From: Planctomycetota bacterium
GTDB taxonomy: Bacteria; Planctomycetota; SZUA-567; H5-PLA8
Direction: 5' to 3'
DNA length: 64,000 bases
NCBI GenBank assembly: GCA_038227875.1
Contig: JBBRPR010000005.1
Location: 64,001 to 128,000, forward strand
Shown: piece by piece, positions 6,494 through 34,754 of the stretch
Layout: each line of letters starts with the position of its first letter
Numbering within the stretch: position 1 is the stretch's first letter
Position numbers and translations under genes: made by a program
Notes under the pieces: generated by a model
What the model was told of the DNA's origin: nothing
The model's database searches: none
Seen by the model: the letters and a program-made list of their open reading frames with translations, nothing else

Positions 6494-6549
6494 GTTAATA
6501 CTCCGGGCCTTGACTGCACTTCCGACGGACTTGCAACGTACCTTATTTA

Positions 6550-8823: not shown

Positions 8824-8858
8824 TCAGCGGTTTTCCCGTTTTCCTTTTTTACCCGGAC

Positions 8859-9764: not shown

Positions 9765-9802
9765 TTTAGTTCCGTTCCTCGTTCCCGGCGCGGCCCAATG
9801 CC

Positions 9803-9881
9803 GCCCCTCCGGGGCTTGCGCGATGTATGGCGATCACTTACGGCTCACGCCGTGGGCTACTTTATTGCGCCCCTCCGGGGC
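9803..9881. repeat. REP-like composite palindromic element
   Basis: Two identical GCCCCTCCGGGGC hairpins (9803-9815, 9869-9881) flank a minus-strand GTAG-CCC-ACGGC-GTGA-GCCGT hairpin (9840-9860). Confidence 0.75.
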
Positions 9882-9950
9882 GAGTAACGGGCTCGTCCCT
9901 GCGGTACGGGTCCCGATGAATTTACCTGCACTTTCTTTGACTTATTTTCG

Positions 9951-10565: not shown

Positions 10566-10603
10566 AATAGTTTAGTCTCTCGTCCGGAGTTCCTCAGTCA
10601 GAC

Positions 10604-17647: not shown

Positions 17648-18085
17648 TTAGGGATTACCACGAAGCGCCATCACTCCGAAGTACGCGGCGACGGCCAGGA
17701 AGAGTGCGACGAGCAGAATCCATGCGGGTGGCAGCGACTTGGCAGTGTCTTCTTCGTCTTCGATCAAGCCTGAGGAGCGGACGCTCGCCTTGGCGGCGGC
17801 GTTGAACTGCTCGGACGGCACCTGCTGGGATTCACGAATCATCTGCTGAACGACGGATTTGCGGAACTCGCCGGAACCCTTCACGCCATCCCAGTTGCGC
17901 ACGACGTTTTTCAAGCCGTTGAGGCGGACCGATTCGGTCGTGCACTTCGAACACGTCGTGAGATGGCGTTCGACGGCGGCCTTCTCCGCGCCGCTGAGTT
18001 CCCGGTCGACGTAATCGGAGAGCAACTCGCGGCATTGCTCGCAGTTCAGTTCCGTGATCGCGGGTTGATTTTTAGTGTCGCTCAT
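17648..18085 (-). CDS. zf-HC2 anti-sigma factor with C-terminal TM helix
   Basis: CEQCRELLSDYVDREL...HLTTCSKC; C-terminal WILLVALFLAVAAYFGVMAL; downstream of an ECF sigma. Confidence 0.9.
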   Translation of the reverse strand: MSDTKNQPAITELNCEQCRELLSDYVDRELSGAEKAAVERHLTTCSKCTTESVRLNGLKNVVRNWDGVKGSGEFRKSVVQQMIRESQQVPSEQFNAAAKASVRSSGLIEDEEDTAKSLPPAWILLVALFLAVAAYFGVMALRGNP

Positions 18086-18289
18086 CGCCCAGCATTCCGT
18101 TTCCGCTTCAGCTACGTGGCCGCGCTGTTACTTACACCGGCCGCACCAACGTCAGTCACTTATTGTGGTCCGGGCGCCCCGCCCGGTCCTCTTGAAAATT
18201 CCGCGCGCCCGTCCCGACAACGTGCCTCTTGAAAGAAGACCACAGTATATAGTTCCCATCCGGACGAAACTATTCCCGCCTTACTGCGC

Positions 18290-18997
18290 CTACTTCTCCT
18301 GAGCCTGAAGAATTTTGAGCGTCTCACGCAACGTTTCGCGGCCGCGCTTGACGCGCATCTTGATCGCGCTGACCGTCACGCCCAGGATTTCCGCGATGTC
18401 TTGGTACTGCATGTGATGGTACTCGACCATCACCAGCGTTGTGCGCTGATCGTCGGGCAGATGGTCGATGGCCTTGCCGATCAGGTGCTGCGCCTCGCGC
18501 CGTTCGGCGTCGCTGAGCGGCGAGGGATCGCCCGAGGCGACGCGTTCGATGATCTTGGTGCCTTCCGGATCTTCGCCGGCCGGTTCGTCGAGCGAAAGCG
18601 TCTGGCGAAGCTTGCCCTTTTTCAATTCGTTGATGCAAAGGTTGGCGGCGATCTTGTAGAGCCACGTCGTGAACTTCGCGACCGGCTGATAGCGCTTGGA
18701 ATTACGGAAGACGCGCAGGAAGGTTTCCTGCGCGATGTCCTCGGCGCCTTCGCGGCTGCGCATGAAGGCGTAGCAGAACGTGATCACCTGGGTTTCGTAG
18801 CGCGAGAGCAGTTCTTCAAACGCGTAGTGCGAACCGTTGGCGAGATGGACCATCAGTGATTCGTCGGTGGCGCCGCCGAGTTCTGTGGGCGGACTGTCCG
18901 GACCGTTGGTGGGCCCCACCAAGTCGGAATTGGGCACGGGAGTGGAGGCGGGATTGGGTGAAGCGGAGGAACTGGTCGTCTGGCCAGGTTCAGTCAT
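18290..18997 (-). CDS. ECF-type RNA polymerase sigma factor
   Basis: AEDIAQETFLRVFRN...KFTTWLYKIAANLCIN; region 4 YQDIAEILGVTVSAIKMRVKRGRETL. Confidence 0.95.
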   Translation of the reverse strand: MTEPGQTTSSSASPNPASTPVPNSDLVGPTNGPDSPPTELGGATDESLMVHLANGSHYAFEELLSRYETQVITFCYAFMRSREGAEDIAQETFLRVFRNSKRYQPVAKFTTWLYKIAANLCINELKKGKLRQTLSLDEPAGEDPEGTKIIERVASGDPSPLSDAERREAQHLIGKAIDHLPDDQRTTLVMVEYHHMQYQDIAEILGVTVSAIKMRVKRGRETLRETLKILQAQEK

Positions 18998-20189: not shown

Positions 20190-21983
20190 ATGCGGGCGTT
20201 TTGGGTGGTTTTATTTCTGTGGTGCTGTGCATCTGCCGCCGAGGACGGGCCGGTCAAGATTGGGCCCCGGGTGGGCGATGCGGCGGCGTGGGGAATTGGA
20301 GAGAGCGTTGCGGACCTGCCGTTGAAATTCCTCGATGGGCCGGCGGGAAAGTTGTCGGATTATTCACTGCGCGCGGCGCTGGTAGTGGCGACGATCGCGC
20401 CGGATTGTCCGGTCTCGCAGAAATACCTGCCGCGGCTGGCGGAATTGCAGAAAAAGTATGACGCTCAGCACGTGGAATTTCTGCTGCTCAACAGTTCTGG
20501 CGATGCGCCAGCCATGCTGCGCACGGCGCTGAAGCGGAGCGGACTGGCCCTACCCGTGGTGCTCGATGACGCGGCCGAGCTGGCGCAAGCCCTGCACGCA
20601 AAAGTAACGACAGACGTCTTTGTGCTCGACCCCGGGCGGAAACTGGTCTATCGCGGCGCGATCGACGACCAGTACGGCATCGGCTACGAACGTGATGCGG
20701 CGAGCCGGAACTATCTCGGCGACGCGCTCGACGCGGTGCTCGCCCACCGCGCCGTTGCCACTGCGGCGACGCTGGCGCCCGGCTGCGAATTGACGTTTCC
20801 CGCGAGGCCGGCGGTGGCCTCGAGTGGGGCGGCCGTTACGTTTCACAATACCATCAGCCGGCTGATGCAGAACAATTGCCAGCAATGCCACCGCCCCGGC
20901 GGCGTGGGTCCGTTTCCGCTGCAGAGCTACAACGAGGTGAAGAAGAAGGCGAACGTGATCCGGCGGGTGACATCGACGCGCGTGATGCCACCGTGGTTCG
21001 CGGATAATTCCATCGGGCACGCATGGGCCAACAACCGGCGACTGTCCGATGGCGATTTGAAATCGCTGCTCGAGTGGATCGACGCGAAATGCCCCGAAGG
21101 CGAAGCCAAAGACGCGCCGCCGCCGCGCGTGTGGGAGAAGGGCGCGGAAGACTGGAACATCGGCACACCCGACGCGATTGTGCAGATCCCCCAACCCGTG
21201 AAGCTTCCGGCGCAGGGGACGATGCCGTACCAGTACATCAAAGTTCAGACGAACTTCACCGAAGATAAATGGGTACAGGCGGTGGAACTGCTGCCGACCA
21301 ACCCGGCGGTTGTGCATCACGCCCAGGTTTTCGTGGTGACCGCGGAAGGCAAGGAATTGTCGGATCCCACGCCGACGAATGGCGGGCGGCCGACGAGCTA
21401 CTTCGCGGCGATGGTGCCCGGCGAAACCGCGTTGGTCTTCCCGGCCGGTTACGCGAAGCTGCTGCCCAGGGGCTGCTCGCTGACGTTTGAAGTTCATTAC
21501 GTGCCCAACGGCGCGCCGGCGTCGGACCAGATCCGCGTCGGAATGGTTTTCGCCCGGACGGCGCCGAAGTTTGAAGTGAAATCGTTCGACATCCGCACCA
21601 ACAATCTGCTGATCAAGCCCGGCGACGCCAATTATTCACAGAGTACGGAGTACACGTTCGAGACGCCGGCCCGCCTGCTGGCCTTTCAGCCGCACATGCA
21701 TCTGCGCGGCAAGGCCTTTTCGTTTGATCTGATTCTCCCCGACGGCCGCACGGAGCCGGTACTGTCGGTGCCGCGTTACGATTTCAACTGGCAGACGTCG
21801 TACCGCCTGAAAGAACCCTGGGACATTCCCAAGGGTTCGCGCCTGCGCGTCACCGGCTGGTACGACAACAGCAAGGACAATCCCGCCAATCCCGACCCAA
21901 CGAAGACGATCCGCGCCGGCGGCGAGACCACCGACGAGATGCTGGTGGGCTTCGGCGAGTGGTGCGCGCGAACGGATGAATGA
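20190..21983 (+). CDS. Secreted redoxin (AhpC/TSA-like) + c-type cytochrome + copper type II monooxygenase-like fusion protein
   Basis: Signal peptide; CPVS and YRGAIDD (redoxin); CQQCH heme motif and MPPW; VVHH, EVHY, PHMHLRG, DEM copper-ligand-like motifs; YDFNWQ. Confidence 0.88.
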   Translation: MRAFWVVLFLWCCASAAEDGPVKIGPRVGDAAAWGIGESVADLPLKFLDGPAGKLSDYSLRAALVVATIAPDCPVSQKYLPRLAELQKKYDAQHVEFLLLNSSGDAPAMLRTALKRSGLALPVVLDDAAELAQALHAKVTTDVFVLDPGRKLVYRGAIDDQYGIGYERDAASRNYLGDALDAVLAHRAVATAATLAPGCELTFPARPAVASSGAAVTFHNTISRLMQNNCQQCHRPGGVGPFPLQSYNEVKKKANVIRRVTSTRVMPPWFADNSIGHAWANNRRLSDGDLKSLLEWIDAKCPEGEAKDAPPPRVWEKGAEDWNIGTPDAIVQIPQPVKLPAQGTMPYQYIKVQTNFTEDKWVQAVELLPTNPAVVHHAQVFVVTAEGKELSDPTPTNGGRPTSYFAAMVPGETALVFPAGYAKLLPRGCSLTFEVHYVPNGAPASDQIRVGMVFARTAPKFEVKSFDIRTNNLLIKPGDANYSQSTEYTFETPARLLAFQPHMHLRGKAFSFDLILPDGRTEPVLSVPRYDFNWQTSYRLKEPWDIPKGSRLRVTGWYDNSKDNPANPDPTKTIRAGGETTDEMLVGFGEWCARTDE

Positions 21984-21997
21984 GTTGACGCGCGGTG

Positions 21998-23533
21998 TCA
22001 GCGCGGCCGGAATTGAATCTGAAATTCCGCGCGCGGTCCTGCGAGTTCAAGCGTCACGGAGCTCGCATCAATTTGCACGGCTGCCGATTTGCCGTCGATC
22101 GTGGCGTTTAGATTTTCCTGTCGCAGTTCGGAAGGGAAGCGCACGGTCAGTCGTTGACTTGTGGTGCCGGTCGTTTCCGGCACTTGAAGTGTTCCAGTAA
22201 TGCCGCTGGCGTCCATTCTGTAGGTGAGCACCTGACTGCGCCAGTGGAGCGACTGTCCGAATCCGCTGCGCCAGTAGTCTTCGGGAACATTCGGAGCGAG
22301 AATCACGCCGCCCTGCAGTGTGAACTCGACGCCGAACAGAAAGCGTTGAACGATGCGGATCAAATTCGACGCGTATTCGCAATAACCTTCCGGTCCCGCG
22401 GGAGTCAGTTTTTCGCCCGGATAGTAACGTTCGCGCCAGAACCATCCATTTTCGCGGCCGACGGCGCAGACGCGGCGCAACGTTTCGGCAATGCCATCAC
22501 CGTCTTCAAAATTGGCGCGGGCCCAGCATTCCAGAAACCAGACGCGCCCCATCGCGGCCAGATCGTGCCGGTCGGGATGGGTGAACTCCCACGCTTCGTA
22601 CGTCTCCGGTCGCGTGGAAATGCCCGTCGGCATGCCGCCGTAGTAGAACGCCGCTTCCGCGCGCATCCGCGGCCAGAGTATGTCGCGTTGGGCAGCGGTG
22701 GCCATGTTCATGGCGAGCGCGGCCCAATCGGTGTCGGTCAAGCCGTGCCGATCGATGCGTCCGTGCTGAGGATGAATGTATTCTGCAAACTGCGATCCGG
22801 TCCAGAACCGCTGTGAAAATTGTTCAGCGACGCGCGTGGCCAGCAGGTTGTAGCGCTGCGCGCTCGGCGTATTTCCCGCAACGTGGTTCAGCGCACTGAC
22901 CCGTTTCAGCGCATCGGCAACGTAACACTGAGCGACGCCGTCGAATTCAACGCGCACGGGCCGTTCCACGTAATATCCCGCGCCGCCGACGACGCCTTCG
23001 GGAGTGATCAAAGTGGCAAGATAGTCGGCGGCCAGATTCACCGCGGGCAACTGCGTGCGGAGCCACGGCAGATCCTGGGTGTGTCGAAAAATCGAGTCGG
23101 CATTCTGAATGAACGTGGGGCCGGCCAGCGCGCGCAAAGGATCCCCGGCAACCCAGTGGGTGTACAGTCCGCCATTGTCGTCGACGCGCGCGCGGGTGGG
23201 CTCCGGACCAATCTCCTGCGCAGCATTGCCGGGAAGAATGGCCAGCGGCAGTTGTCCGTTGGCACGTTGAAAACCGCGCACATAATCCCAGTTTAATTTT
23301 ACCGTACGCTCCTGCCCCAGCCACAACAGCGCGTCGGTCATCTGATGGCCGTCGAGCGACGGATAGGTGTTGCCATAGCCGAAGCCTTGTCCGTCAGCAC
23401 ACACCGACCAGTAGCCGGGAAAAACCGCGTCGTTCACTGCCGAAAGGACGCTCTTTAGCGCCGCCTGCGCGTAGCCTTCGACGAGGTCCGAATCAGGCAG
23501 CGAAATCCGTGCGACGGTGGAGTTATGACTCAT
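21998..23533 (-). CDS. Six-hairpin glycosidase-like protein (putative glycoside hydrolase)
   Basis: 511-aa ORF with helical aromatic/acidic segments typical of (alpha/alpha)6 glycosidases, a C-terminal beta domain (LAPNVPEDY...), and an upstream AraC regulator. Confidence 0.55.
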   Translation of the reverse strand: MSHNSTVARISLPDSDLVEGYAQAALKSVLSAVNDAVFPGYWSVCADGQGFGYGNTYPSLDGHQMTDALLWLGQERTVKLNWDYVRGFQRANGQLPLAILPGNAAQEIGPEPTRARVDDNGGLYTHWVAGDPLRALAGPTFIQNADSIFRHTQDLPWLRTQLPAVNLAADYLATLITPEGVVGGAGYYVERPVRVEFDGVAQCYVADALKRVSALNHVAGNTPSAQRYNLLATRVAEQFSQRFWTGSQFAEYIHPQHGRIDRHGLTDTDWAALAMNMATAAQRDILWPRMRAEAAFYYGGMPTGISTRPETYEAWEFTHPDRHDLAAMGRVWFLECWARANFEDGDGIAETLRRVCAVGRENGWFWRERYYPGEKLTPAGPEGYCEYASNLIRIVQRFLFGVEFTLQGGVILAPNVPEDYWRSGFGQSLHWRSQVLTYRMDASGITGTLQVPETTGTTSQRLTVRFPSELRQENLNATIDGKSAAVQIDASSVTLELAGPRAEFQIQFRPR

Positions 23534-23586
23534 GAATCAGCGACCCCAATTAAACCTGAGCGCAATGGAAATGGCAGATTTTCCGT

Positions 23587-24495
23587 TCACTTCTTCGCCG
23601 CCTGGCGCGGGGTCTGGCCGAGGTACCTGCGAAAGCAGGCCGCGAGATGTTGCGACGAGTAGTAGCCGAGACGCTCCGACACGCGCGAGACGGTGGCGCC
23701 GGGCGCCGCGAGCAGTTCCTTCGCGCGGGCCAGGCGCGCGCGATGGGCGTATTCCATCGGTGCGGCGCCGACGTCTTTCAGGAAGCAGGCGTGGAAGTGC
23801 GAGGCGCTCATGCCGGAGAGATCGGCGAGTTCGGCGACCGTCGGCCAAGGGCTGGGGCAGCTGTCGAGAAATTCGCGCGCGCGGGAAATGCCCGGAGGGA
23901 TGAAACCTTTTGGCGCCGCGGCCAGCGGCAGCGTGACGAGCGTCGCCAGCATGCCTTGCAGAGCGGAGCGCGCTTTGACGAGGCCGAGCACCGACTGCTC
24001 TTCCAGTGCAGCGAACATGGCCTGGTAAAATGGTTCGAGTTTATCGGCGCCGCGGAGATGCCGATCGGGCAGCGCGTGGACGGCGGCGCAGAGTTCGTTG
24101 GCTTCATCGGAAGGCAGGTTGAGGAAGCGCTTGATTGCCGGCGTGCCGGGCTTGGGGATGCTCAGCGTCAGCCAGTAAATCGTGCAGGGGTGCATCAATT
24201 CGTGAAGGCCACCGTGCGGTTCGTCGGGCCAGGTGAAATAGACGTCACCGCCGCGCAGATCGTATAGGCGCTCCCGCGCCCACCACGTGATGTGCCCGCG
24301 GATGATCAGGCAGATTTCGAACTGGCCTTTGTGCTCGTGCTTACCCAAACCGCCGACGTGAGTAAAGATGTCGAAGCCGAGGTAATTGATTTCCGGGAAC
24401 TGCTTCAAATTGACGGCAACGAAGCGGCGGTGCTTGCGGACCTGGGTGACGGTGATGCCCGCCCTAATCTGCTTCGACAACCGTTGCGCTGCCAT
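23587..24495 (-). CDS. AraC family transcriptional regulator
   Basis: N-terminal cupin HEHKGQFEI...EPHGG; C-terminal double [18 protein letters not shown]...[20 protein letters not shown]. Confidence 0.95.
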
Positions 24496-24647
24496 ATATT
24501 CCTCTTGGAAGAGATGTGTACGATCCTACGGCGAGAGCATGGCAAAGGCAAGCGTGCAGCGCAGGCTTTCCAAGAGGACGAACACGCCGACGTCCAGGTT
24601 CGCGACTAGAATCCTCAATTGGCGTCGAATTTGCACCGTTATCGTGG

Positions 24648-26552
24648 ATGAACTTCGTCGCGACCGATGTTTCCGCACGCACGCGCAAGGCCTCAATCAC
24701 GATAGCCGATGTCTGGCGCTACAAGAACACTGCGGTCGTGGCGCTCTCCATTGTGGCCATTGGCAGCTACTTGCTGCTCCGTTTCGCATTTTTGACAGTC
24801 GCTTTCGCAAACATTCCACTGCTGATCTGCCTGGCAGTGGGCGGCGTTCCGCTGGTGGTTGAATTGTTGCAGAAGGCGTGGCGGCGCGAATTCGGCTCGG
24901 ATCTGCTGGCTGGAATCTCCATTGTCACGTCTGCGCTGCTGGGCGAGTACCTGGCTGGATCGATTGTCGTGCTGATGCTTTCCGGCGGCGCCGCGCTGGA
25001 AAGCTACGCGCTGCGCAGCGCCTCGTCGGTGCTCGCAGCATTGGCCAAGCGCATGCCATCGGTCGCGCACCGCAAGCGCAGCTCCGGCGGCGAGGAGGAT
25101 GTCGCGCTGCTGGACGTGAAAGTCGGCGACGAGCTCGTGATTCATCCCCACGACATTTGTCCGGTGGACGGTGTGGTCTTGAACGGTCACGGCACAATGG
25201 ACGAATCCTTCCTGACCGGCGAGCCTTTCAAGCTGACAAAAACCATCGGCTCGGCGGTGATCTCCGGCGCGATCAACGGCGAGTCGGTCCTGACGATCCG
25301 CGCGGAGAAACTCGCCGCCGATTCGCGGTACGCAAAAATCATGGTGGTGATGAAGGAGTCGGAAGCCACCCGGCCCAACCTGCGCCGGCTGGGCGACCAA
25401 CTTGGCGCGATCTATACGCCGCTGGCCGTCGCCGTCGCGGTGCTGGCGTGGGTGATCAGCGGAGAGGCCCACCGCTTTCTGGCGGTGCTAGTCATTGCCA
25501 CGCCCTGTCCGCTGCTCATCGCGATTCCCGTCGCGATCATCGGCTCGATTTCCCTGTGCGCGCGCCGCGCGATCATTGTGAAGAGTCCGGTGGTGCTGGA
25601 GAAAATCGCGGAATGCCGGACGGCGATTTTCGACAAGACCGGGACGTTGACCTACGGCGAGCCGACGCTCGCCGAGCAGGTCGTCGCGACGGGATTCACC
25701 GCGCCGGACGTGCTGACGTACGCGGCGGGGCTGGAACGATACTCGCGGCATCCGCTGGCGCGCGCGATTCTGGCGGCGGCCAAGGACAGCAACATCGCCA
25801 TTCCGGAATCGAGCGAAGTGAGCGAACCTCCGGGCCAGGGACTGCGGGGAACCGTGGCCGGTCACAGCGTTCAAGTCACCAGCCGCAACAAATTGGTGCG
25901 GGCCGGCACCCCCGGAGCGGAACAGCTTCCGCCGGTCGCGGGTGGATTGGAATGCGTCGTGGTGATCGATAATCGTTATGCGGCGATCTACCGGTTCCGC
26001 GATGCGCCGCGGCCGGAAAGCCGATCGTTCGTCACACATCTGGGGCCCAAGCATCATCTGGATCGCGTCATGATTGTGTCGGGAGACCGGGAGTCGGAAG
26101 TGCGCTATCTGGCCGACCAGGTGGGCGTCCGCGAAATTTACGCGCAGAAGACGCCGGAGGAAAAACTCGAGATTGTGCGCAGCGAAACGGCCAAGGCCAG
26201 CACGCTCTACGTCGGCGACGGCATCAACGACGCGCCCGCGATGATGGCCGCAACCGTCGGCATGGCCATCGGTCAGAACAGCGATGTGACGACCGAAGCC
26301 GCCGGCGTGGTGGTGATGGAGAATTCGCTGAAGAAAGTCGATGAGTTCATGCATATCGCCCGGCGCATGCGCACGATCGCGCTGCAAAGCGCGATCGGCG
26401 GCATGTTGCTGAGCGTGGTGGGCATGGCTCTGGCGGCGTCGGGCGCGATGACGCCGGTGCAGGGAGCCATCAGCCAGGAGGTGATCGACGTCCTCGCGGT
26501 TCTCAATGCGCTGCGCGCTGCCATGCCGCCGCGCGTACTTTCCGACGTGTAA
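24648..26552 (+). CDS. Heavy-metal P-type ATPase, P1B-5-type motifs
   Basis: TGE, ATPCP, DKTGTLT, HPLA, GDGIND; TM motifs [14 protein letters not shown] and [11 protein letters not shown]. Start uncertain (24648 chosen). Confidence 0.93.
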
Positions 26553-26678
26553 TTGGTGACTCGAAATCGGAATCCAGTTCGCGATCCACACGATTGAAGG
26601 AAGCGGTTCAATAGACGTCTAGAGCCGTTGATTAGCCCGCCGGTTACGCTTTGCAACCCGCTCGTGTGGAGAGATTTT

Positions 26679-27224
26679 GTGTGTTTCAAAATGCCCGGCG
26701 TTCTTTGGGTGATCCTGGCCACGCTGGGTGGCGCTGCGGCATCCGAGGGGCTCCTTCCTCAAGTCGCCACAGTTCAAGAACTCTCCAAACTTGCCAAACC
26801 TGCGAAAGCCAAAGTCATCCTGCTGAATATGTGGGGGCAGAAGTGCAGCCGCTGCATGACGGAACTTCCCGCGATCGTGCGCGTGGTTACGGCTCTCGCT
26901 TCGAATCCAGACGTCGGCTTTATTGGACTCTGCATTCCTGAAGGTGAACTCCAGAAAGACAAGACCCTCGCCGACGCCTGCAGTGCCCTTGCTCAAAAGA
27001 AGAAATTGAATTACCCCAATTACATCTGGGCCGGGACCGGCGATGCGCTGGTCGACGCCTTCAACATTCAGGGCACGCCGTACAACTGCCTGATGACTAC
27101 CGATGGGAAAATCATTGCCGAGCTGGATATTCCCGAGGATCCCGACAAGGCGGTGGAGTACGTGCTGGCTGCCATCCAGAAGGCGCTCAAGGACCCGACG
27201 CCCAAAGAGCGGGGGACAAAATAG
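26679..27224 (+). CDS. TlpA/ResA-like thioredoxin-fold protein, probably exported
   Basis: LLNMWGQKCSRCMTELP (CxxC) and GTP cis-Pro loop; N-terminal hydrophobic segment. Confidence 0.85.
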   Translation: MCFKMPGVLWVILATLGGAAASEGLLPQVATVQELSKLAKPAKAKVILLNMWGQKCSRCMTELPAIVRVVTALASNPDVGFIGLCIPEGELQKDKTLADACSALAQKKKLNYPNYIWAGTGDALVDAFNIQGTPYNCLMTTDGKIIAELDIPEDPDKAVEYVLAAIQKALKDPTPKERGTK

Positions 27225-27232
27225 CGCAGACC

Positions 27233-27646
27233 ATGACTTCTCCCTCCTCCGACCAATCCAAACAGCCTGCTGCAGCCGGCGCGCTCGATCGGTATTTCAC
27301 GGAGTTTCTCGTCGGAAAATTGCATCAGCCGCTGCTGCCGCAACTACGCAAACTCTCGGTGGTGTGCGCGATCACGATCACCGGCGCGGTGGAACGCTCG
27401 TGGACGCTGACAATCGTGGACGGAATGCTCGAATCCGTCTCCGCTAAACCCGGCACGCCGCAGTGCACGTTCACGCTCGACGCGGCGGCCTTTAGCGCGA
27501 TTGTCTCCGGCCGACTGTCGCCGCAGATGGCGTTCTTCAAACGGCAGGTGGACATCTCCGGGGCGATTGAAATCGGATTGCGCCTGGCCTTTGTGCTCGG
27601 TGATTTTTTCAAAACCTATCCTTACACGGTGGAAGAGATGCGGTGA
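27233..27646 (+). CDS. SCP2 sterol/lipid-binding domain protein
   Basis: CTFTLDAAAFSAIVSGRLSPQMAFFKRQVDISGAIEIGLRL matches the SCP2 C-terminal pattern. Confidence 0.88.
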   Translation: MTSPSSDQSKQPAAAGALDRYFTEFLVGKLHQPLLPQLRKLSVVCAITITGAVERSWTLTIVDGMLESVSAKPGTPQCTFTLDAAAFSAIVSGRLSPQMAFFKRQVDISGAIEIGLRLAFVLGDFFKTYPYTVEEMR

Positions 27647-28734
27647 TGACGATGCCAAACCTGTCGAGCGTAGACGCGCGGGTCCGCGAGATTGCGGCGC
27701 TGCATCTGGACCCGGAATTCGGCGCGCCATATTGGATTGGCCGGAGCCGCGCACTGAATCTTCGCGCGGCGCAGATTCAATCGGTGAGCGATCTGGCCTT
27801 GCTGGGGCCCATGGACGCGCAAGCGCTGGCGCAGTTGCCGGTCGAAGAGTTCATCCCGCGAAAGTTGATCCACAGGCGCAGTGCGTGCGTGATCGCGGAA
27901 ACCGGCGGCACGCTCGGCCGCGCGAAGTTCGCCGTGCACCGCGACGACGAGTTTGAGGCCGCGTTTGTCCGGCCGTTCGTCACGGCGGCGACGAAAGCGG
28001 GATTTCCGCAGGGCGTCAACTGGCTGTTCGTCGGCCCGTCGGGGCCGCACATCATCGGTAAAGGCGCCCGCGCTTGCGCGCGCGGCATGGGCGCGCCCGA
28101 TCCGTTCACCACCGATTTTGACCCACGCTGGGCCAAGAAACTTCCCGACGGTTCGCTGGCGCGCACGCGTTACGTTCAGCACATTACCGCGCAGGCGCTG
28201 AATATTCTCGAGACACAAGCGATCGGCGCGATCTTCGCCACGCCGCCGGTGATCGAGAGCCTCGCCGAGAAGATCACGCCGGCGAAACGCGACGCCGTGC
28301 GCGGCATCCATTTTGGGGGGATGCCGGTGAGTTCCGCGCTGCGCCAGCGGCTGCATGAACTCTTTCCGCATGCGGTGCTGATCTCCGGCTACGGTAACAC
28401 GCTGTTCGGCGTCGCTCCGGAATTGCACTACAGCGACGCGACCGGCATCGACTATTTCACGCAGGGCACGCGGTTGATCTACCGCGTCGTGCCGCTCGGC
28501 GCTGCCGACGAACACCAACGCATCGCTGCCACCATCGGCTATCTCGAACGCGGGCAGATCTGCGCACACCGCCTCGATGAAATGCAGTTCATCGCCAACA
28601 TGCTGGAACGCGACACGGCTGTGCGTATCCCGCCGCTCGAAATCTTCAGCGCCGATGGCTTTGTGCTCGACGGTTTGCGCGATCCACAGCCGATCATTGA
28701 CGCCACGACCAAGCCGGCATTGGGGCTGTACTGA
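27646..28734 (+). CDS. EhpF-like / PaaK-like adenylate-forming (ANL) enzyme
   Basis: HLDPEFGAPYW...PVEEFIP...ETGGTLGRAK (A3-like P-loop), GPSGPHIIG, DFDPRWAKK, GYGNT resemble the phenazine-modifying EhpF family. ATG overlaps the SCP2 stop (TGATG). Confidence 0.72.
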   Translation: MTMPNLSSVDARVREIAALHLDPEFGAPYWIGRSRALNLRAAQIQSVSDLALLGPMDAQALAQLPVEEFIPRKLIHRRSACVIAETGGTLGRAKFAVHRDDEFEAAFVRPFVTAATKAGFPQGVNWLFVGPSGPHIIGKGARACARGMGAPDPFTTDFDPRWAKKLPDGSLARTRYVQHITAQALNILETQAIGAIFATPPVIESLAEKITPAKRDAVRGIHFGGMPVSSALRQRLHELFPHAVLISGYGNTLFGVAPELHYSDATGIDYFTQGTRLIYRVVPLGAADEHQRIAATIGYLERGQICAHRLDEMQFIANMLERDTAVRIPPLEIFSADGFVLDGLRDPQPIIDATTKPALGLY

Positions 28735-29426
28735 TGTTCATCGAAGAACAGATCACCGTGCCGTCCGGCGGCGTACGCCTGGCCGCGGTGCTCGGCTACC
28801 CGGAATCTGGCATGCCTGCTTACGCGACGTTGCTCTGTCCGCCGCATCCGAATTTTGCCGGCGACATGGAGAACAATGTCATCACCGCGCTGGCACGCGA
28901 ATTTTCGCGCGACGCGCTGACGCTGCGCTTCAATTACCGCGGCATCGGCCAGAGCGAGATTGCGCTGCCGCAGAATGTATCGCTGTACGATTTCTGGAAC
29001 GACGTGGAAGAGACCAAGGATTATTCCGTGCCGTTGTGCGACGTCCAGGCGTGCGCCGCGGAACTGGCGCGGCAGTCCAACGGTGCGCCATTGATCATCG
29101 TGGGTTATTCGTTCGGCAGCATCGCAGGCTTGATGGCCGGCCAGAAGCTTAACGCTGCCGCGCTGGTGGGCATCGCGCCACCGTTGATCCGCTATGACTT
29201 TTCCTTTCTCGCCGAAAATACCACGCCCGCACTGCTGCTCAGCGGCGTGGATGATTTTGTGTTCTCACGTGAAGTCAGCGATGCGCTCGTGCTGCCCAAG
29301 ACCGTCCGTCGGGAAATCCTGAGCGGCGAAGATCACTTCTTTCGCGAACACGAAGCGGACCTGGCTTCGCGCGTGCGACGTTTCATCCAGGAGTTCCTTC
29401 CTGCAGACCTCACCGGAGAAAATTAA
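28734..29426 (+). CDS. Alpha/beta hydrolase
   Basis: PPHPNFAGDMENNV, RFNYRGIGQS, nucleophile elbow GYSFG, DD and DHFF catalytic candidates; TGATG overlap with the upstream gene. Confidence 0.9.
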   Translation: MFIEEQITVPSGGVRLAAVLGYPESGMPAYATLLCPPHPNFAGDMENNVITALAREFSRDALTLRFNYRGIGQSEIALPQNVSLYDFWNDVEETKDYSVPLCDVQACAAELARQSNGAPLIIVGYSFGSIAGLMAGQKLNAAALVGIAPPLIRYDFSFLAENTTPALLLSGVDDFVFSREVSDALVLPKTVRREILSGEDHFFREHEADLASRVRRFIQEFLPADLTGEN

Positions 29427-30730
29427 TGGAACTCAAACCCATTGGCCCCGCTGCGATCATCGCCAAGAAAAAGAAGCACCTGATTCCCTGCTCGTACCAT
29501 TTTTATAAAAACGCGCCGCAGATGGTGCGCGGGGAGGGCCTGTTCCTCTACGACTCCGACGGCCGCCGCTACATGGATCTCTACTCCGGAGTTTCGGTCA
29601 ACGCGCTGGGACATTGCCATCCGGAAGTCACCGATGCGATCTGCCAGCAGGTGAAAACCCTTCAGCACACGACCACGATTTACCTCACGGAACCCATCGT
29701 CAATCTCGCGGAAGCGTTGGCGGAGGTGCTGCCCGGAGATCTCTGCCGCTCGTTCTTCTGCGCCAGCGGATCGGAAGCCAACGAAGGCGCGGCACTGCTG
29801 GCTACGCTGGCCACGGGGCGCAACGAATTCCTCGCGTTTCAAAACGGATTGCACGGCCGCACGAAACTGACGATGAGCCTCACCGGGCTTTCGTTCTGGC
29901 GTACCGATCCGCATCCGGTGGGCGGCATCAGTTTCGTTCCGCCGCCGCACTGCAAGGCCTGTCCGTTCGGAAAAACGTTCGGCGCGTGCCACTACGAATG
30001 CGTCGACGCCGTCGAGAAGACGATCCAGACGTCCACCAGCGGCAAGCCGGCCGCGATGTTCGTCGAGCCGATCCAGGGCAACGGCGGCATCGTGGCGCCG
30101 CCGCCCGAGTACTTCACGCGTCTGCAGGCGGTGCTGAAAAAATACGGCACGCTGCTGATCGCCGATGAAGTTCAGACCGGGCTGGGCCGCACCGGGAAAA
30201 TGTTCTGCATGGAACACTGGAACGTCGTTCCGGACATCGTCACCGGCGGCAAGGCGCTGGGCGGAGCGACGCCGATCGGATACTTCGCGACGACCGACAC
30301 CATCGCGGCGAGTTTCACGCGGCCCAGCGCATCCACCTTCGGCGGAAATCCGGTCACCGCCGTTGCTGGATTGACAGTGCTCAAGATCATCCAACGTGAT
30401 CATCTTGTGGAGCGTAGCGCGGAACTCGGCGCGTTTCTGCGGGAACAATTGACCGCGCTCTGCAGCAGTTACGAAAATGTAATCGAGGTGAGAGGAAAGG
30501 GTCTGATGGTGGGTGTTGAAGTGTCTGGAAATGGGTCTGGAAAGAGCGCCGCCGAATTTACGGACACACTATTGGAAAGCATGAAGGACGCGGGCTTTCT
30601 GCTCGGCAAGACCGGTCCCGGGCGAAATGTGATCACGTTTATGCCGCCGCTCATCGTCACACGCAATTATTTAGAGGACGCATTACACGCCTTCAAGACA
30701 AACTTCGAAGCGACTCGTAGAAATGCGTGA
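29426..30730 (+). CDS. Class III PLP-dependent aminotransferase (AGXT2/GabT-like)
   Basis: GRRYMDLYSG...GHCHP, SGSEANE, EPIQGNGG, IADEVQTGLGRTG, DIVTGGKALGG (PLP Lys), STFGGNP; TAATG overlap. Confidence 0.95.
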   Translation: MELKPIGPAAIIAKKKKHLIPCSYHFYKNAPQMVRGEGLFLYDSDGRRYMDLYSGVSVNALGHCHPEVTDAICQQVKTLQHTTTIYLTEPIVNLAEALAEVLPGDLCRSFFCASGSEANEGAALLATLATGRNEFLAFQNGLHGRTKLTMSLTGLSFWRTDPHPVGGISFVPPPHCKACPFGKTFGACHYECVDAVEKTIQTSTSGKPAAMFVEPIQGNGGIVAPPPEYFTRLQAVLKKYGTLLIADEVQTGLGRTGKMFCMEHWNVVPDIVTGGKALGGATPIGYFATTDTIAASFTRPSASTFGGNPVTAVAGLTVLKIIQRDHLVERSAELGAFLREQLTALCSSYENVIEVRGKGLMVGVEVSGNGSGKSAAEFTDTLLESMKDAGFLLGKTGPGRNVITFMPPLIVTRNYLEDALHAFKTNFEATRRNA

Positions 30731-30808
30731 AGGTTTGAACGATACTTAGTCTGTACTTCAGATGCATTGCTCGAAGTCCTGTCGCCCGTTGCAATTGTGG
30801 AGAAATGA

Positions 30809-31906
30809 ATGCCAAAAATGAGAACCGCATCGCTGCTTACACTGATGCTGGCCAGCGCATTTCTGAACGGTTGCTCGCAGATGCTCGCGAAGACTTTCGT
30901 GAACACGCAGCCGGAAGTTTCGATCCGCACAAAAGAGTACGCCGATCCGCTGAAGATCGTCGACGGTCACGGCGAAGTTTACACGCCACCGGCCACCAGC
31001 GGGCAATCCGAATTGCTGCAACGTTACGCGCCGGTGATCGTGCAAGGCGTCGAAGCGCCCACCGACCGCGCGTACGCGTTCGATTCCGATCAACTCGGCC
31101 AGCCGGAACTGATCGCGCAAACCGACAGCACGTTCTCCGTTTCGATCGATGTGAATTCCCCCGCGGTGTTTGCCAGCGAAGAGAAAACGCATCTCGGCAA
31201 GACGGAATTGAAGCAGCTCGTCTACGTGTTCTGGTATCCGCGCCACCCGGTAGGCATGGTTGAAAAGGGCGACATCGACGGCGGCGTGCTGCGCATCACG
31301 CTCGACGCCGCGGATCGGCCGTCCATTTACGAATACGTGATGGCGTGCGGTTGCTGGCATGGAATGTTTGTCAGCGAACACGTCGAAGCGTGGGCTCAGA
31401 AGGAATTCGCGCAGCGCGAAAAAGGCAAGAAGTGGTTCGTCGAAAGACCGGTCGACAACGAAGACGACTGGAAAGTCCGCGACATTGTCTGGGACGTTTC
31501 CAGCGCCGGACGTCCGGTGGTTTTCCTCGCCGCCGGCAAGCACGAATGCCTGGCGATCCAGACCGACAAACTCGTGGGCAATCTCGCCGCGCTCTCGCCC
31601 AAGAGCTACGCGTTGCAGGATTATGCGCAGCTCGACGCCTTGCCGGTCCGCGGCGGCGCCTCGAAGACGCAGACGGCGTCGATGTTCAATCCCGACGGCC
31701 TGGTCTGGGGCGGGCGGCGCAAAGGCGAAGAGAAGATGTTCGCGAAGCTCGACCACGGCGGCTGGCCGCGCCGACTGGATGCGATGAAGATTCACTGGGA
31801 TCAGGAATCCTGGAACAAAACCAATCTGCTCGAACAGTTCATGCGACTGCCCGGCGACATGACCCACGCGCAAGCGAGTTCACCCGTGTTGAAAGTCAAA
31901 TCCTGA
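30809..31906 (+). CDS. Uncharacterised lipoprotein with a CGCWH motif
   Basis: Lipobox FLNGC after a hydrophobic signal; DGGVLRITLD...YEYVMACGCWH core. Confidence 0.75.
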   Translation: MPKMRTASLLTLMLASAFLNGCSQMLAKTFVNTQPEVSIRTKEYADPLKIVDGHGEVYTPPATSGQSELLQRYAPVIVQGVEAPTDRAYAFDSDQLGQPELIAQTDSTFSVSIDVNSPAVFASEEKTHLGKTELKQLVYVFWYPRHPVGMVEKGDIDGGVLRITLDAADRPSIYEYVMACGCWHGMFVSEHVEAWAQKEFAQREKGKKWFVERPVDNEDDWKVRDIVWDVSSAGRPVVFLAAGKHECLAIQTDKLVGNLAALSPKSYALQDYAQLDALPVRGGASKTQTASMFNPDGLVWGGRRKGEEKMFAKLDHGGWPRRLDAMKIHWDQESWNKTNLLEQFMRLPGDMTHAQASSPVLKVKS

Positions 31907-31920
31907 GCCAAGGAACACCG

Positions 31921-32817
31921 ATGCCTAACCAGAGTCCGCTCGCCACGAATCTTCCCGCAACCCAGAACGCGTCACCCGTGGACGAGCAGGTGCTGAAAGT
32001 GGCCTTCACGCCTGATCCCGATGATGCGTACGCGTGGTGGGCGGTCTGTTCCAAGCGCAAGGGCATTCGCGGTTATCGCATCGAAACGTTTCCGCGCCAC
32101 ATTCAGGAAATCAACGAGAGCTGCAGAACCCGTCAGGAATACGACATCGCGGCCGTCTCCTCCGCTGCGTACCCCTATTTAAGCGCCAACTACGCGATCC
32201 TCTCGGCCGGCGCATCGGTCGGGCGCGGTTACGGACCGGCGCTGGCGTCCAAGACACTGCAGACGGAGCAGGATCTGATCGCGGGTATGCGCGTTGGCAT
32301 TCCCGGCGAACTCACGACCGGCGCGCTGCTGCTGCGTCTTTACTTTCCAGGTGTGAAGACCGTCGAGCTCCCGTTCGATCAGGTTGCGCCCGCAATTCTG
32401 CGCGGCGAGCTCGATGCCGGCGTGCTGATCCACGAGGAACTTCTCAACTGGCGTGCCGCCGGTCTGCGCAAACTCGCGTGCCTGGGGCAGAAGTGGACTG
32501 AGGCGACCGGACTGCCGTTGCCGGTCGGATTGAATGTCGTGCGGCGCGGCCTGGGCAAGAATTTGATTCGCCGCATCGGCTCATTGGTCCGCGAAAGCAT
32601 GAAGGAAGCCGACGGCCACAAGGCCGAAGCAACCCAGTTCGCCATGACCTATTCGCGAGAAGCCGAACCGGAAATTGGCGCGCGCTTCATCCACATGTTC
32701 GCCAATCAGGACACGATCAAGCTCGACAACCAGTGTCTGGAAGCGCTGCGCGTCCTCTATCAGTCCGCCCACGCCGAAGGTCTGATCGACCGCGTCCCGG
32801 CCGTGGACGTGAACTAA
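31921..32817 (+). CDS. MqnD-like (MqnA/MqnD/SBP family) protein
   Basis: FTPDPDDAY, DIAAVS, GASVGRGYGP, PGELTTG, GVLIHE, TGLPLPVG. The real start is ATG 31921; the upstream part of ORF 31345 overlaps the lipoprotein gene. Confidence 0.85.
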   Translation: MPNQSPLATNLPATQNASPVDEQVLKVAFTPDPDDAYAWWAVCSKRKGIRGYRIETFPRHIQEINESCRTRQEYDIAAVSSAAYPYLSANYAILSAGASVGRGYGPALASKTLQTEQDLIAGMRVGIPGELTTGALLLRLYFPGVKTVELPFDQVAPAILRGELDAGVLIHEELLNWRAAGLRKLACLGQKWTEATGLPLPVGLNVVRRGLGKNLIRRIGSLVRESMKEADGHKAEATQFAMTYSREAEPEIGARFIHMFANQDTIKLDNQCLEALRVLYQSAHAEGLIDRVPAVDVN

Positions 32818-32989
32818 TTGCTCGCCAGTACGACAGGCGACCTTACCCGCGATCCGTCAATCTTCTTTCGCGTTAGTGCTGGGCGGTTCGTCGCTGATGC
32901 GCCGGCGGTCAGCGCCTCGTTTCTTGTCGCACGATTTCAGCGGACTAGAGAGAAAGACTGCAGCGAAGAACCGTGTCCGCAACCGGTGC

Positions 32990-33017
32990 TTGATAGAAAG
33001 CCGAACGACGCTACTAT
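32990..33017 (+). promoter_or_regulatory. Putative sigma70 promoter of tRNA-Lys
   Basis: TTGATA-16 nt-TACTAT, about 55 bp upstream of the tRNA. Confidence 0.55.
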
Positions 33018-33070
33018 TCTCCACCGGCGCATTTCCCCACCGCGCCGCGCAGAGCTCCGCCAGAACCTTC

Positions 33071-33143
33071 GAAGGGGTAGCTCAATAGGTAGAGCAACGG
33101 ATTTTTAATCCGTTGGTCGCGGGTTCGATTCCCGCCCCCTTCA
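33071..33143 (+). tRNA. tRNA-Lys (anticodon UUU), CCA not encoded
   Basis: Acceptor GAAGGGG/CCCCTTC, D arm GCTC/GAGC, anticodon stem ACGGA/TCCGT with loop TTTTTAA, T arm GCGGG-TTCGATT-CCCGC, discriminator A. Confidence 0.95.
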
Positions 33144-33158
33144 TTTACTATCCGCTCA

Positions 33159-34055
33159 CTACTCCCGAATGATCACCGTCTTGCCGTTTTTTTCGAAACA
33201 CTTCAGGTAATCGGCGAGCGGTCCTAGGCCCATTTCTTTGCGGTAGTCGTCTACTTTCTCGCGGTTTTCAAGCGGGTAGAGGCTTAAATTTCCGTCCGGT
33301 TCGTAAGTGAGTTGCGAGCCATAACGCTGACGTGCGCCGATGTTCGTCTGGAGGCGGTCATAGAGCAATGCAAAGGCGCCGCCGTCGGCAAGGAGTCCGG
33401 CTTTCAGATCCTTCTCAATTTCCACGATCGACGCGAGCATCAGCGGCATATGATTGCTGTGCTGCACGAGCAGAAAGGCCTGACCGGCGCTCCTGGCGCC
33501 AAATCGCTTCGCGTCAATCCAGCCAGACTCCAGGGCCAACTTCTCGACGTAAGCGGTGTTGTCCATGTCCACCGCGATAATCGTTTCCGGCACGAACGGT
33601 CCATTGCGCATGGCCTGGTCGACTTCAACCCGCTGCTCCAACTGTTTCTGAATGGCCGAGATTTCCTCTCCGTTGATAGTTTTAGCCCCAAAGACCATCG
33701 GCTTGCATTCGATCTCGAGCGGCGTGTGATCGAGTTTTGAAAACACCGTCGTGCCGCATGGACCTGGAGTCCACTGCTGTGTCCATTCCAGCTTCCCTTC
33801 TTTAATGAGAAAGTGCGAGCTGAATGAACGCTGCTCCCGGACTGTTCCGGTGCGCGCATCCTTCGTGGCTTCAAGCCAGACCTGGTCGCGCTCGTATTTC
33901 GGCGTGTACTTTGCCAGCGAACCGTGCATGGAGATGGTGATCAGGCGAGGCTCGAACCGTATGAACTCCCGCGGCGGTGAGCGATCGGCTTTCCAGCAAC
34001 CGAAAAGGTCTCTGGCAGGACCAGGAATATCCAATTCGTTGACATCGTTGCTCAT
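33159..34055 (-). CDS. DUF6624-like domain protein with an extra N-terminal domain
   Basis: C-terminal DQAMR...AFLLVQH...ALLYDR...QRYGSQ...VDDYRKEMGLGPLADY. Confidence 0.75.
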   Translation of the reverse strand: MSNDVNELDIPGPARDLFGCWKADRSPPREFIRFEPRLITISMHGSLAKYTPKYERDQVWLEATKDARTGTVREQRSFSSHFLIKEGKLEWTQQWTPGPCGTTVFSKLDHTPLEIECKPMVFGAKTINGEEISAIQKQLEQRVEVDQAMRNGPFVPETIIAVDMDNTAYVEKLALESGWIDAKRFGARSAGQAFLLVQHSNHMPLMLASIVEIEKDLKAGLLADGGAFALLYDRLQTNIGARQRYGSQLTYEPDGNLSLYPLENREKVDDYRKEMGLGPLADYLKCFEKNGKTVIIRE

Positions 34056-34154
34056 GCTCGCAGTGTATCCGCAGCTTGATTCAGTTTGTTTTCAAAAAAT
34101 AAATTGTATGAACCATCAGTGGCCGATGCCTAAAAACCATCTGGAGTTGTAACC

Positions 34155-34754
34155 ATGAGCACTGAAACTGCACCCACATTAATCAGCTCCATCCGCGCCG
34201 AATACGAACGGTACAAAGCGCTCAGCGAAGGCGCGTTTGCGCAGGTGAACGATGCGGATCTGTGCGCGCGGACGGGGGATGGCACCAATTCCATCGCCGT
34301 CCTCGTGTGGCACCTTTCTGGAAATCTGGCATCGCGCTTTACAGACTTCCTGACGACCGATGGTGAAAAGCCATGGCGCAAGCGCGATGAGGAATTTTCG
34401 GCGCGGGTCGTTTCGCGGGATGAACTGTTGAAGAAGTGGGAGTTGGGCTGGGCCGTGCTGTTCAGCGCGCTCGATGCGCTGACCGACGAGGATTTGCAGC
34501 GCGTCGTAATGATTCGCAAACAGCCGTTGCGCGTGCATCAGGCGCTGCAGCGGTCTCTGGCGCATGCCAGCTATCATGCCGGTCAGATTGTCCTGATCGC
34601 GCGATCGTTTTGCGGCGAGCACTGGAAATCGCTGACCATCCCGCCGGGAGGTTCGCAGGCCTACAACAGCGATCCGAAATTTGAGCAGGCGGGCGGGCAC
34701 GCGGAAAAGTTGCGCGCGTCAACAGACGCGTCGCGTGAGCCGAAACAAAAATGA
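34155..34754 (+). CDS. DinB superfamily protein (DUF1572-like)
   Basis: NSIAVLVWHLSGNLASRFTDFLTTDGEKPWRKRDEEF and HASYHAGQIV. Confidence 0.9.
   Translation: MSTETAPTLISSIRAEYERYKALSEGAFAQVNDADLCARTGDGTNSIAVLVWHLSGNLASRFTDFLTTDGEKPWRKRDEEFSARVVSRDELLKKWELGWAVLFSALDALTDEDLQRVVMIRKQPLRVHQALQRSLAHASYHAGQIVLIARSFCGEHWKSLTIPPGGSQAYNSDPKFEQAGGHAEKLRASTDASREPKQK

Follow-up and report, generated by a model that had tools for sequence, protein, structure and literature searches.

An EhpF-type adenylating enzyme gene of a Planctomycetota contig lies in a recurrent gene cluster with a possible link to the futalosine pathway

The described systems closest to the locus studied here include EhpF/EhpG and GriC/GriD, a two-protein class acting on aromatic acids. 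EhpF and EhpG belong to the D-alanylgriseoluteic acid pathway of Pantoea and, as Bera et al. reportedly found in 2010, turn phenazine-1,6-dicarboxylate into 6-formylphenazine-1-carboxylate. GriC is presumably a member of the same family of EhpF-type adenylating enzymes (ANL). According to the pertinent passage of its description, GriC makes the acyl-AMP of 3-amino-4-hydroxybenzoate, which GriD reduces to the aldehyde (PMC10179220). Here, we analyze a locus of seven genes, one of which encodes an EhpF-type ANL, on contig JBBRPR010000005.1 of a Planctomycetota bacterium (assembly GCA_038227875.1); the stretch of 64,000 nucleotides that was analyzed, positions 64,001 to 128,000 of the contig, is called the window throughout. 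Six of these genes are members of a cluster found repeatedly in many uncultured Planctomycetota and in a small number of other phyla, often joined to operons of menaquinone synthesis. Tentatively, and with a confidence that stays a little short of even, we read the window locus as a reduced version of this conserved cluster, which would turn an aromatic acid of the futalosine branch into an aldehyde and then into an amine for the cell envelope.

The resemblance to the described systems centers on the ANL protein. With 363 aa, compared to 366 aa in EhpF, the window ANL aligns nearly over its full length, residues 11-350 matching residues 21-352 of the EhpF chain in a PDB sequence search (Table 1). 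Like its counterparts of about 365 aa, it is a stand-alone protein without the C-terminal ANL subdomain, and the gene of an alpha/beta hydrolase (ABH) starts at its stop codon. Invariant in 19 aligned sequences are E86-T87-G89-T90-L91-G92, a stretch which we take to be the P-loop, and G249-Y250-G251-N252, which we assume to represent the A5 motif. The match to Pfam PF00501 is partial and below the cutoff. Full-length similarity, the missing subdomain and the core motifs all agree in that the window ANL is, judged from its sequence, a stand-alone adenylating enzyme of the EhpF/ThnN type. More than 1195 homologues were found at E <= 1e-5, the best 120 of which share 51-90% identity; the few with organism names are metagenome-assembled genomes (MAGs) of Planctomycetota, and some are called ThnN by JGI.

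In a quick tree, the ANLs of the cluster group together with 99% support, and a long branch sets them apart from Pantoea EhpF and from one Streptomyces 'arylcarboxylate reductase'. The window ANL pairs with that of locus L001 (97%), inside a clade of 22 members (99%) otherwise derived from type-A loci, whose gene order is given below. Two Streptomyces homologues are annotated as 'arylcarboxylate reductase', and one of these adjoins a type I polyketide synthase (PKS). On Pantoea plasmids, an aldehyde-dehydrogenase gene overlaps the 3' end of the EhpF-like gene within a phenazine cluster. Both the described systems and the cluster have the ANL gene next to the gene of an NAD(P)-type reductase, and in both the ANL acts, or in the cluster would act, on aromatic acids. 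However, the partner in the cluster is a thioester reductase fused to an SCP2 domain (Red-SCP2) instead of an aldehyde dehydrogenase, the window has no such partner, and the ANL of the cluster is flanked by a lid-less serine hydrolase and forms a clade of its own. Neither the window nor the set of conserved cluster families includes an aldehyde-dehydrogenase gene. Since the reductase partner is of another family, and since the window has none, we place the cluster outside the two-protein class of EhpF/EhpG and GriC/GriD. By analogy, it may be described as working like a two-protein aryl carboxylate reductase plus a transaminase.

All seven same-strand ORFs in the region 26628-32817 are located on the plus strand (Table 1). 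Three stop/start overlaps join the core genes, tgatg at 27644-27648 (SCP2/ANL), tgatg at 28732-28736 (ANL/ABH), and taatg at 29424-29428 (ABH/AT3, a class-III aminotransferase), and the remaining intergenic gaps measure 8 nt (27224/27233), 78 nt (30730/30809) and 14 nt (31906/31921). ATG 26692 is the probable start of the thioredoxin-fold gene, while the ANL gene starts at GTG 27643 or ATG 27646. The seven same-strand genes and the three overlaps are exactly those given in an earlier sequence-only reading of the window, whose domain labels for the seven genes are upheld by comparison with Pfam, NCBIfam and PDB. A tRNA-Lys gene (anticodon TTT) at 33071-33143 (+), 254 nt past the final cluster gene, marks the downstream boundary of the gene unit. 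Promoter and terminator scans of the locus gave no signal exceeding shuffled controls, and an Rfam scan of 23000-34500 revealed only tRNA and no riboswitch.

The window was further searched by Pfam on its 43 ORFs and by tblastn with 11 cluster proteins. Neither phz genes nor mqn genes other than the MqnD-like one were found, in agreement with the sequence-only reading, and the same searches revealed no reductase, MMPL, U32, GT2, radical SAM or cytochrome genes; the Red-SCP2 probe matched with its SCP2 portion only. A link of the locus to phenazines was rejected, as no phz gene is present among the 43 scanned ORFs.

A profile-based genome scan with the ANL yielded 80 related loci. They originate from Planctomycetota (Phycisphaerae, Sedimentisphaerales, Tepidisphaerales, Pirellulales, and Planctomycetales), Hydrogenedentota and Desulfocapsaceae, and one contig is binned as Gemmatimonadota. 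All of them are MAG contigs, and since many are cut short, the numbers of loci given here for each gene are minimum values; in GC-rich loci, the starts of ORFs are approximate. Complete genomes with the cluster include OW818685.1, OY970194.1 and OW818658.1 (loci L004, L012 and L036). Neighbors were counted in two ways, by tblastn with the window proteins at a distance of at most 8 kb from the ANL (n=80 loci) and by all-against-all ORF clustering, which is more sensitive than tblastn (n=81 sources, the 80 loci and the window). In the latter, ORF families occurring on the opposite strand only and same-strand overlapping ORFs (e.g., 'f42') were taken as shadows and excluded.

In 76 of the 80 loci ABH immediately adjoins ANL, on its upstream side in 43 cases and on its downstream side in 33. 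Among the four remaining loci, two stop at the ANL, a third contains ABH in truncated form, and in the fourth an MMPL gene separates the pair. In 39 loci, referred to as full-flank loci, the sequence extends 8 kb or more to both sides; these comprise ABH in 39 cases, Red/SCP2 in 38, MMPL and lipoprotein in 26 each, any cytochrome in 23, AT3 and any mqn gene in 20 each, MqnD in 15, GT2 in 12, U32 in nine, and an ArsS-like radical SAM protein in seven. ANL and ABH are the sole strictly constant pair of the cluster. Together with the SCP2 domain, which mostly comes fused to a thioester reductase, they make up its core, and the other families join this core in varying combinations.

The flank controls, namely the P-type ATPase, AraC, DUF6624 and YfhO, were each found in 0/80 loci by tblastn at the same distance. 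As the synteny recurs in 80 loci and the controls do not, the grouping is more than chance. The conserved synteny that the sequence-only reading had proposed to look for is hence present for six of its genes; the TlpA-like gene, which occurs in a single locus, was rejected as a conserved neighbor. That all seven genes are unrelated neighbors on a shared strand is barely credible: no promoter or terminator signal delimits an operon and TlpA is not conserved alongside the rest, as this would predict, but the three overlaps between core genes and the synteny across several phyla contradict it. As a separate observation, the ANL of L067, the sole 'Gemmatimonadota' locus, is almost identical to that of the Planctomycetota MAG locus L052 (branch lengths 0.09 and 0.04), which suggests that the L067 contig is mis-binned or the product of a very recent transfer.

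Table 1. Genes of the window locus and families of the cluster, with their presence at related loci.
Feature	Coordinates in the window	Strand	Match	tblastn, <=8 kb from ANL	ORF clustering
Thioredoxin-fold (TlpA/ResA-like) protein	26628/26692..27224	+	Redoxin 27.9 bits, CSRC motif	1/80	
Stand-alone SCP2 protein, 137 aa (clustering: Red/SCP2 family)	27233..27646	+	SCP2 52.3 bits	49/80	72/81
EhpF-type adenylating enzyme (ANL), 363 aa	27643/27646..28734	+	PDB EhpF 3l2k, E 1.6e-30		81/81
Alpha/beta hydrolase (ABH), 230 aa	28734..29426	+	Pfam matches; PDB sequence matches 3trd, 2fuk, 2i3d	77/80	79/81
Class-III aminotransferase (AT3), 434 aa	29426..30730	+	Aminotran_3 344.5 bits	31/80	33/81
Periplasmic lipoprotein, 365 aa	30809..31906	+	Lipobox; without Pfam family	45/80	47/81
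MqnD-like protein, 298 aa	31921..32817	+	PF02621 189.7 bits	15/80	20/81
MMPL family					45/81
GT2 family					27/81
Monohaem cytochrome c					20/81
Multihaem cytochrome A					18/81
U32 family					17/81
MqnE/C radical SAM					17/81
MqnA					16/81
Multihaem cytochrome B					16/81
ArsS-like radical SAM					12/81

The relation to the futalosine pathway becomes apparent from the gene orders of the relatives, 30 of which (of 80) contain at least one mqn gene. Type-A loci are tightly packed in the order MqnA, MqnE/C, Red-SCP2, MMPL, ANL, ABH, U32, AT3, and two multihaem cytochromes. In L006, a single ORF of 732 aa (4155-6353) scores above the cutoffs of both MqnE (707.9, cutoff 434.55) and MqnC (774.7, cutoff 428.1); MqnA, which matches SCO4506 with E 7.6e-21, is located upstream, and the 3' end of the fused ORF overlaps the start of Red-SCP2 at 6340. 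The Hydrogenedentota loci are arranged as MqnA, radical SAM, MqnD, a small unknown protein, lipoprotein, Red, SCP2, MMPL, ANL, and ABH. Type-C loci show the order cytochrome c, Red-SCP2, ABH, ANL, MqnD, AT3, (DUF547), lipoprotein, (GT2), and MMPL. As mqn genes differ in position between phyla, the futalosine link is not one inherited accident. The genes, their families, the synteny, and the fusion of the cluster to mqn operons are supported directly. Type-B loci have the order cytochrome c, ArsS-like radical SAM, Red-SCP2, ABH, ANL, lipoprotein, GT2, and MMPL, their ArsS-like protein scoring 413.9 with TIGR04167 (cutoff 300). ArsS-like and mqn genes do not co-occur in any of the 39 full-flank loci.

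Some further features of the relatives are recorded here in their own right. A continuous MqnE-MqnC ORF of 725-799 aa is present in L006, L007, L012, L013, L016, L018, L019, and L020; judged by the scores in L006, it would be a naturally occurring fused form of both radical SAM enzymes that serve in the futalosine pathway. The ArsS-like ORFs (L034:2226-4523, L050:5421-7760, and 10 more loci) have about 440 extra N-terminal residues matching no family, which could stem from a fused domain or from a start called too far upstream. Two further features, recorded at L045:13273-14130 and L036:5143-5889, are a DUF547 protein that recurs within the cluster beside the lipoprotein and an unnamed small protein (about 185-214 aa) encoded ahead of the lipoprotein in 13 loci; the window lacks both.

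In the window, the futalosine pathway is represented by the MqnD-like protein. Its PF02621 score (Table 1; cutoff 26) is accompanied by PDB matches to 1zbm (AF1704, 1.5e-49) and Thermus MqnD 2czl (1.7e-38), while no MqnA structure was matched in PDB at E <= 0.01, so that the gene is closest to solved MqnD. The protein aligns end to end with Thermus MqnD, with LIHEE in the window opposite IIHES in Thermus. The histidine of the IHE motif, His145 of TTHA1568, which we take to be the catalytic residue, is kept in the window and in 20/20 MqnD copies of the cluster. The copies differ in the residues that follow. IHEEL-type copies are located, in 14/14 cases (13 loci and the window), in loci with AT3, to which they are directly adjacent in type-C loci, whereas the copies inside mqn operons are of the IHEGQ type (6/6), same as AF1704. 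The HEEL type was found in 109 of the best 120 database homologues of the window protein, and in the MqnD tree the HEEL group is a clade of 20 rows with 95% support. The IHEEL subgroup may be a dedicated paralogue, or it may reflect a lineage effect only.

Bona fide MqnA and MqnE/MqnC thus share an operon with the cluster in related loci, but the window has no mqn gene besides this one, and its MqnD belongs to the subgroup accompanying AT3. The last futalosine steps have been predicted in gut genomes, and the passages of that work dealing with them name no genes of the families of our cluster (PMC4746308). One might suppose that the cluster performs late or accessory steps of menaquinone synthesis, handling the 6-carboxyl group and chaperoning or transporting prenylated intermediates, such that no new compound is made. 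Consistent with this, Red-SCP2 through AT3 follow mqnA-mqnE/C in one packed type-A operon, no MqnP/L/M/G-type genes were found among the families present in at least four loci, and the pairing of SCP2 with U32 resembles the accessory set UbiT/UbiU/UbiV. However, amination, glycosylation and export are not required for menaquinone, reduction of the carboxyl group to an aldehyde leaves the group in place, and the gene content varies widely among lineages, which is unusual in a housekeeping route. We therefore regard such a role as rather improbable.

The likeness to UbiT/UbiU/UbiV, which serve the O2-independent hydroxylation of ubiquinone, consists in SCP2 and U32 proteins encoded beside quinone-biosynthesis genes. 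It does not extend to the equivalog level: the window SCP2 reaches 31.1 bits with the NCBIfam model of UbiT (cutoff 46.9) and meets only the generic SCP2 model, and U32 reaches 185 with UbiU (cutoff 440). Moreover, the U32 of the relatives is one double-domain protein of about 660 aa, with UbiU and TrhP as top models, both below cutoff, and the window has none. Known members of the U32 family hydroxylate aromatic rings.

SCP2 in the related loci is usually the C-terminal part of a protein of about 500 aa with an N-terminal thioester reductase domain (NAD_binding_4, 158 bits). The closest solved relatives of the reductase domain are MxaA, the R domain of AusA, other terminal reductases of nonribosomal peptide synthetases (NRPS) and PKS, and carboxylic acid reductase (CAR). 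The long fusion is found in 61/80 loci, and SCP2 alone, as in the window, in 6/80. The window SCP2 shares 43% identity with residues 363-491 in the Red-SCP2 protein of L011 (tblastn) and is, as this similarity indicates, an orthologue of the C-terminal domain of the fusion. For this reason, the reductase may lie elsewhere in the genome. Reductase and exporter of the window's lineage must be encoded elsewhere in the genome, or they are missing.

As the window holds no reductase, amide or ester coupling is possible in its lineage. ANL and ABH would then form a ligase/acyltransferase pair by which the activated acid is joined to an amine made by AT3 or to an alcohol. Across 32 ABH sequences, Ser126 (GYSFG) and His201 do not vary, and Asp174 occurs in at least 90%. 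The AlphaFold2 (AF2) model (pLDDT 95.8) has its top fold match in 2fuk (XC6422, 'serine hydrolase without lid'); the next matches are feruloyl/cinnamoyl esterases and monoacylglycerol lipases. In both respects, ABH is predicted to be a lid-less alpha/beta serine hydrolase with an intact catalytic triad. This triad, the strict constancy of the ANL-ABH pair and the lack of a reductase in both the window and L001 fit such a coupling. The abundance of the long Red-SCP2 fusion and a possible location of the reductase elsewhere argue against it, and no acceptor-forming genes are evident; on balance, we judge it quite unlikely. A complex prediction for ANL and ABH (score 0.22, mark 0.32) weighs neither for nor against binding.

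AT3 is 62-78% identical to the copies of type-A loci. Among the matches listed, it stays below the cutoff of all 25 NCBIfam models (top 343.8, cutoff 552), and the equivalog cutoff is not reached for any named subfamily (ArgD, GabT, BioA, HpnO-like, and others). Its nearest PDB structures are acetylornithine and GABA aminotransferases; aminotransferases of this type interconvert terminal aldehydes and primary amines. AT3 is, on these comparisons, classed as a class-III omega-type aminotransferase of no named subfamily. PigE is also among its matches, and the use of a thioester-reductase-type domain with a class-III aminotransferase to bring an activated acid to an amine would be shared with PigE and with the combination of a PKS/NRPS terminal reductase and a class-III aminotransferase. 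In contrast to these, the cluster has no PKS/NRPS or carrier protein, and activation would be performed by the EhpF-type ANL. Type I CAR differs as well, in that ANL and reductase of the cluster are separate proteins and no carrier domain is present. A full-text literature search found no paper describing this gene combination, in line with the sequence-only reading, which recognized it from no described pathway.

The lipoprotein has no sequence match in Pfam, NCBIfam or PDB. The Gly-Cys of its lipobox is present in at least 90% of 26 sequences, and C180-G-C182 and H245 are invariant. Its AF2 model has a pLDDT of 88.9; a fold search of PDB yielded nothing at E <= 0.001, and the top matches, which would have pointed to an NLP-type fold (E 0.075, TM ~0.2), were judged as noise and this assignment rejected. 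In a profile search, 1731 cluster representatives passed E <= 1e-3, of which 657 also passed E <= 1e-30. Among the 59 lipoprotein homologues listed, 10 carry a precomputed thioredoxin Pfam domain, and in 4/4 rescanned homologues this domain is C-terminal (e.g., residues 386-477 of P0271). The thioredoxin-fold protein of the window has a hydrophobic N terminus and reaches 26 bits with the TlpA equivalog model (cutoff 230). The thioredoxin fusions of the lipoprotein homologues account for the presence of its gene at the head of the window cluster, and we keep it as a probable lineage-specific addition and partner of the lipoprotein.

Directly upstream of the thioredoxin-fold gene, a heavy-metal P-type ATPase is encoded at 24516-26552 (+; TIGR01525 480 bits), with an AraC regulator (23587-24495, -) divergent from it. 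A relation to the Cys-rich lipoprotein is possible, as is a mere coincidence of position. In L001, an MMPL gene is located two genes upstream of the thioredoxin-fold gene, in place of the ATPase.

Export and modification of a lipid are suggested by several families of the relatives. The exporter is of the MMPL/HAE3 type with a sterol-sensing domain and weak matches to HpnN/HAE3/BstA-type models, and GT2 shows weak matches to HpnB/CruG-type models. Hpn proteins serve lipid export, amination and glycosyl transfer in the hopanoid pathway. The cluster has in common with the hopanoid genes HpnN, HpnO, and HpnB/HpnI that an RND/MMPL lipid exporter is combined with a class-III aminotransferase and with a GT2 that acts on a lipid. 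However, the cluster scores far below the cutoffs (HpnN 123.5 vs 751.85, HpnB 158 vs 379), and it has neither a cyclase nor HpnH. A related possibility is an aliphatic amino- or glycolipid, made from a fatty or other aliphatic acid by adenylation, reduction to a fatty aldehyde or alcohol, and amination or glycosylation, and exported by MMPL, the mqn linkage reflecting shared membrane biology rather than a common substrate. Its appeal lies in the reductase matching PF07993, the fatty acyl reductase family, in the presence of SCP2, in the Hpn-like matches of exporter and GT2, and in the full-flank loci that lack mqn genes (19/39). Yet the ANL groups with EhpF and 'arylcarboxylate reductase' and not with fatty acyl-AMP ligases, with PF00501 partial and below cutoff; U32 relatives act on aromatic rings; and both the operon fusion to mqnA-mqnE/C and the position of MqnD between ANL and AT3 are hard to account for. 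We hold an aliphatic product to be unlikely.

This leads back to the aromatic acid-aldehyde-amine pathway that we tentatively prefer. The type-C order of Red-SCP2, ABH, ANL, MqnD and AT3 reads as such a pathway, of which the step order, the substrate and the product are what we infer. ANL would adenylate an aromatic carboxylic acid from the futalosine branch, which might be 1,4-dihydroxy-6-naphthoate, the product of MqnD and the nearest such acid at hand, or a lipophilic or prenylated derivative held by SCP2. The thioester-reductase domain would reduce the activated acyl group to the aldehyde, which AT3 would convert to a primary amine. In other variants of the cluster, U32 could hydroxylate the ring without oxygen, and GT2 could glycosylate the reduced hydroxymethyl form. 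The MMPL pump and the lipoprotein would deliver the product to the envelope. The sequence-only reading had envisaged an aromatic acid which is adenylated and aminated, or coupled as an amide, into a lipophilic envelope product. The wider cluster, with EhpF-type ANL, Red-SCP2, AT3, MMPL and mqn genes, fits the core of this idea, although amide coupling is less favored than the route via aldehyde and amine.

Several observations weigh against the pathway as drawn. The hydrolase ABH, constant as it is, has none of its steps assigned to it. No reductase was found within reach in the window or in L001, its nearest relative, and EhpF-type enzymes are known to pair with aldehyde dehydrogenases, a different family from the reductase of the cluster. 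Thioester reductases normally need a thioester, and Pfam revealed no carrier domain in any cluster protein. Neither a prenyltransferase nor UbiD/UbiX or UbiE was found among the families in at least four loci. Of the 39 full-flank loci, 19 hold no mqn gene, and seven hold the ArsS-like radical SAM protein instead. Finally, SCP2, MMPL and the 'male sterility'-type reductase would suit an aliphatic lipid equally well.

The remaining genes of the window include some large or clustered ones. An ORF of 2893 aa at 40884-49565 (-) with GH94 supersandwich and catalytic domains and a glucoamylase-like domain resembles, by its domain composition, the giant cyclic beta-1,2-glucan synthase/phosphorylase type. 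A protein of 1857 aa (11786-17359, -) has PQQ-like beta-propeller, TPR, and CBM9 domains; a pair of ECF sigma factor and zf-HC2 anti-sigma factor (17648-18997, -) is located upstream of it. A row of MoxR AAA ATPase, DUF58, and BatA/VWA genes at 4025-11665 (-) is similar to a Bat-type aerotolerance operon. At 20190-21983 (+), a protein of 597 aa combines an N-terminal Redoxin/AhpC-TSA domain with a C-terminal domain similar to copper type II monooxygenases.

As to the product, one may go a step further and imagine a new redox lipid of the naphthoquinone type, in which the 6-carboxyl group of a futalosine-pathway intermediate is kept and reduced to an aminomethyl head group, with variants glycosylated or hydroxylated by U32 without oxygen. 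The same idea would have the lipid exported by MMPL to a lipoprotein serviced by thioredoxin, working with the co-encoded mono- and multihaem cytochromes, and would place it in the outer membrane or the periplasm, in anaerobic members of Planctomycetota as well as their neighbors. Taken as a whole, this proposal is speculative and unlikely to be right.

There are few kinds of respiratory quinones, and microbial energy conservation is defined by them. The futalosine branch of the cluster carries its own exporter, O2-independent hydroxylase and cytochromes, and a conserved branch of this kind would indicate that abundant, mostly uncultured lineages of sediment and soil make a quinone-derived cofactor or an envelope lipid not yet described. 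For enzymology, the cluster provides three targets: an EhpF-type adenylase whose partner is a thioester reductase and which lacks a carrier protein, an MqnD subgroup tied to an aminotransferase, and a well-folded lipoprotein family that is absent from Pfam and has no structural neighbor among solved proteins.

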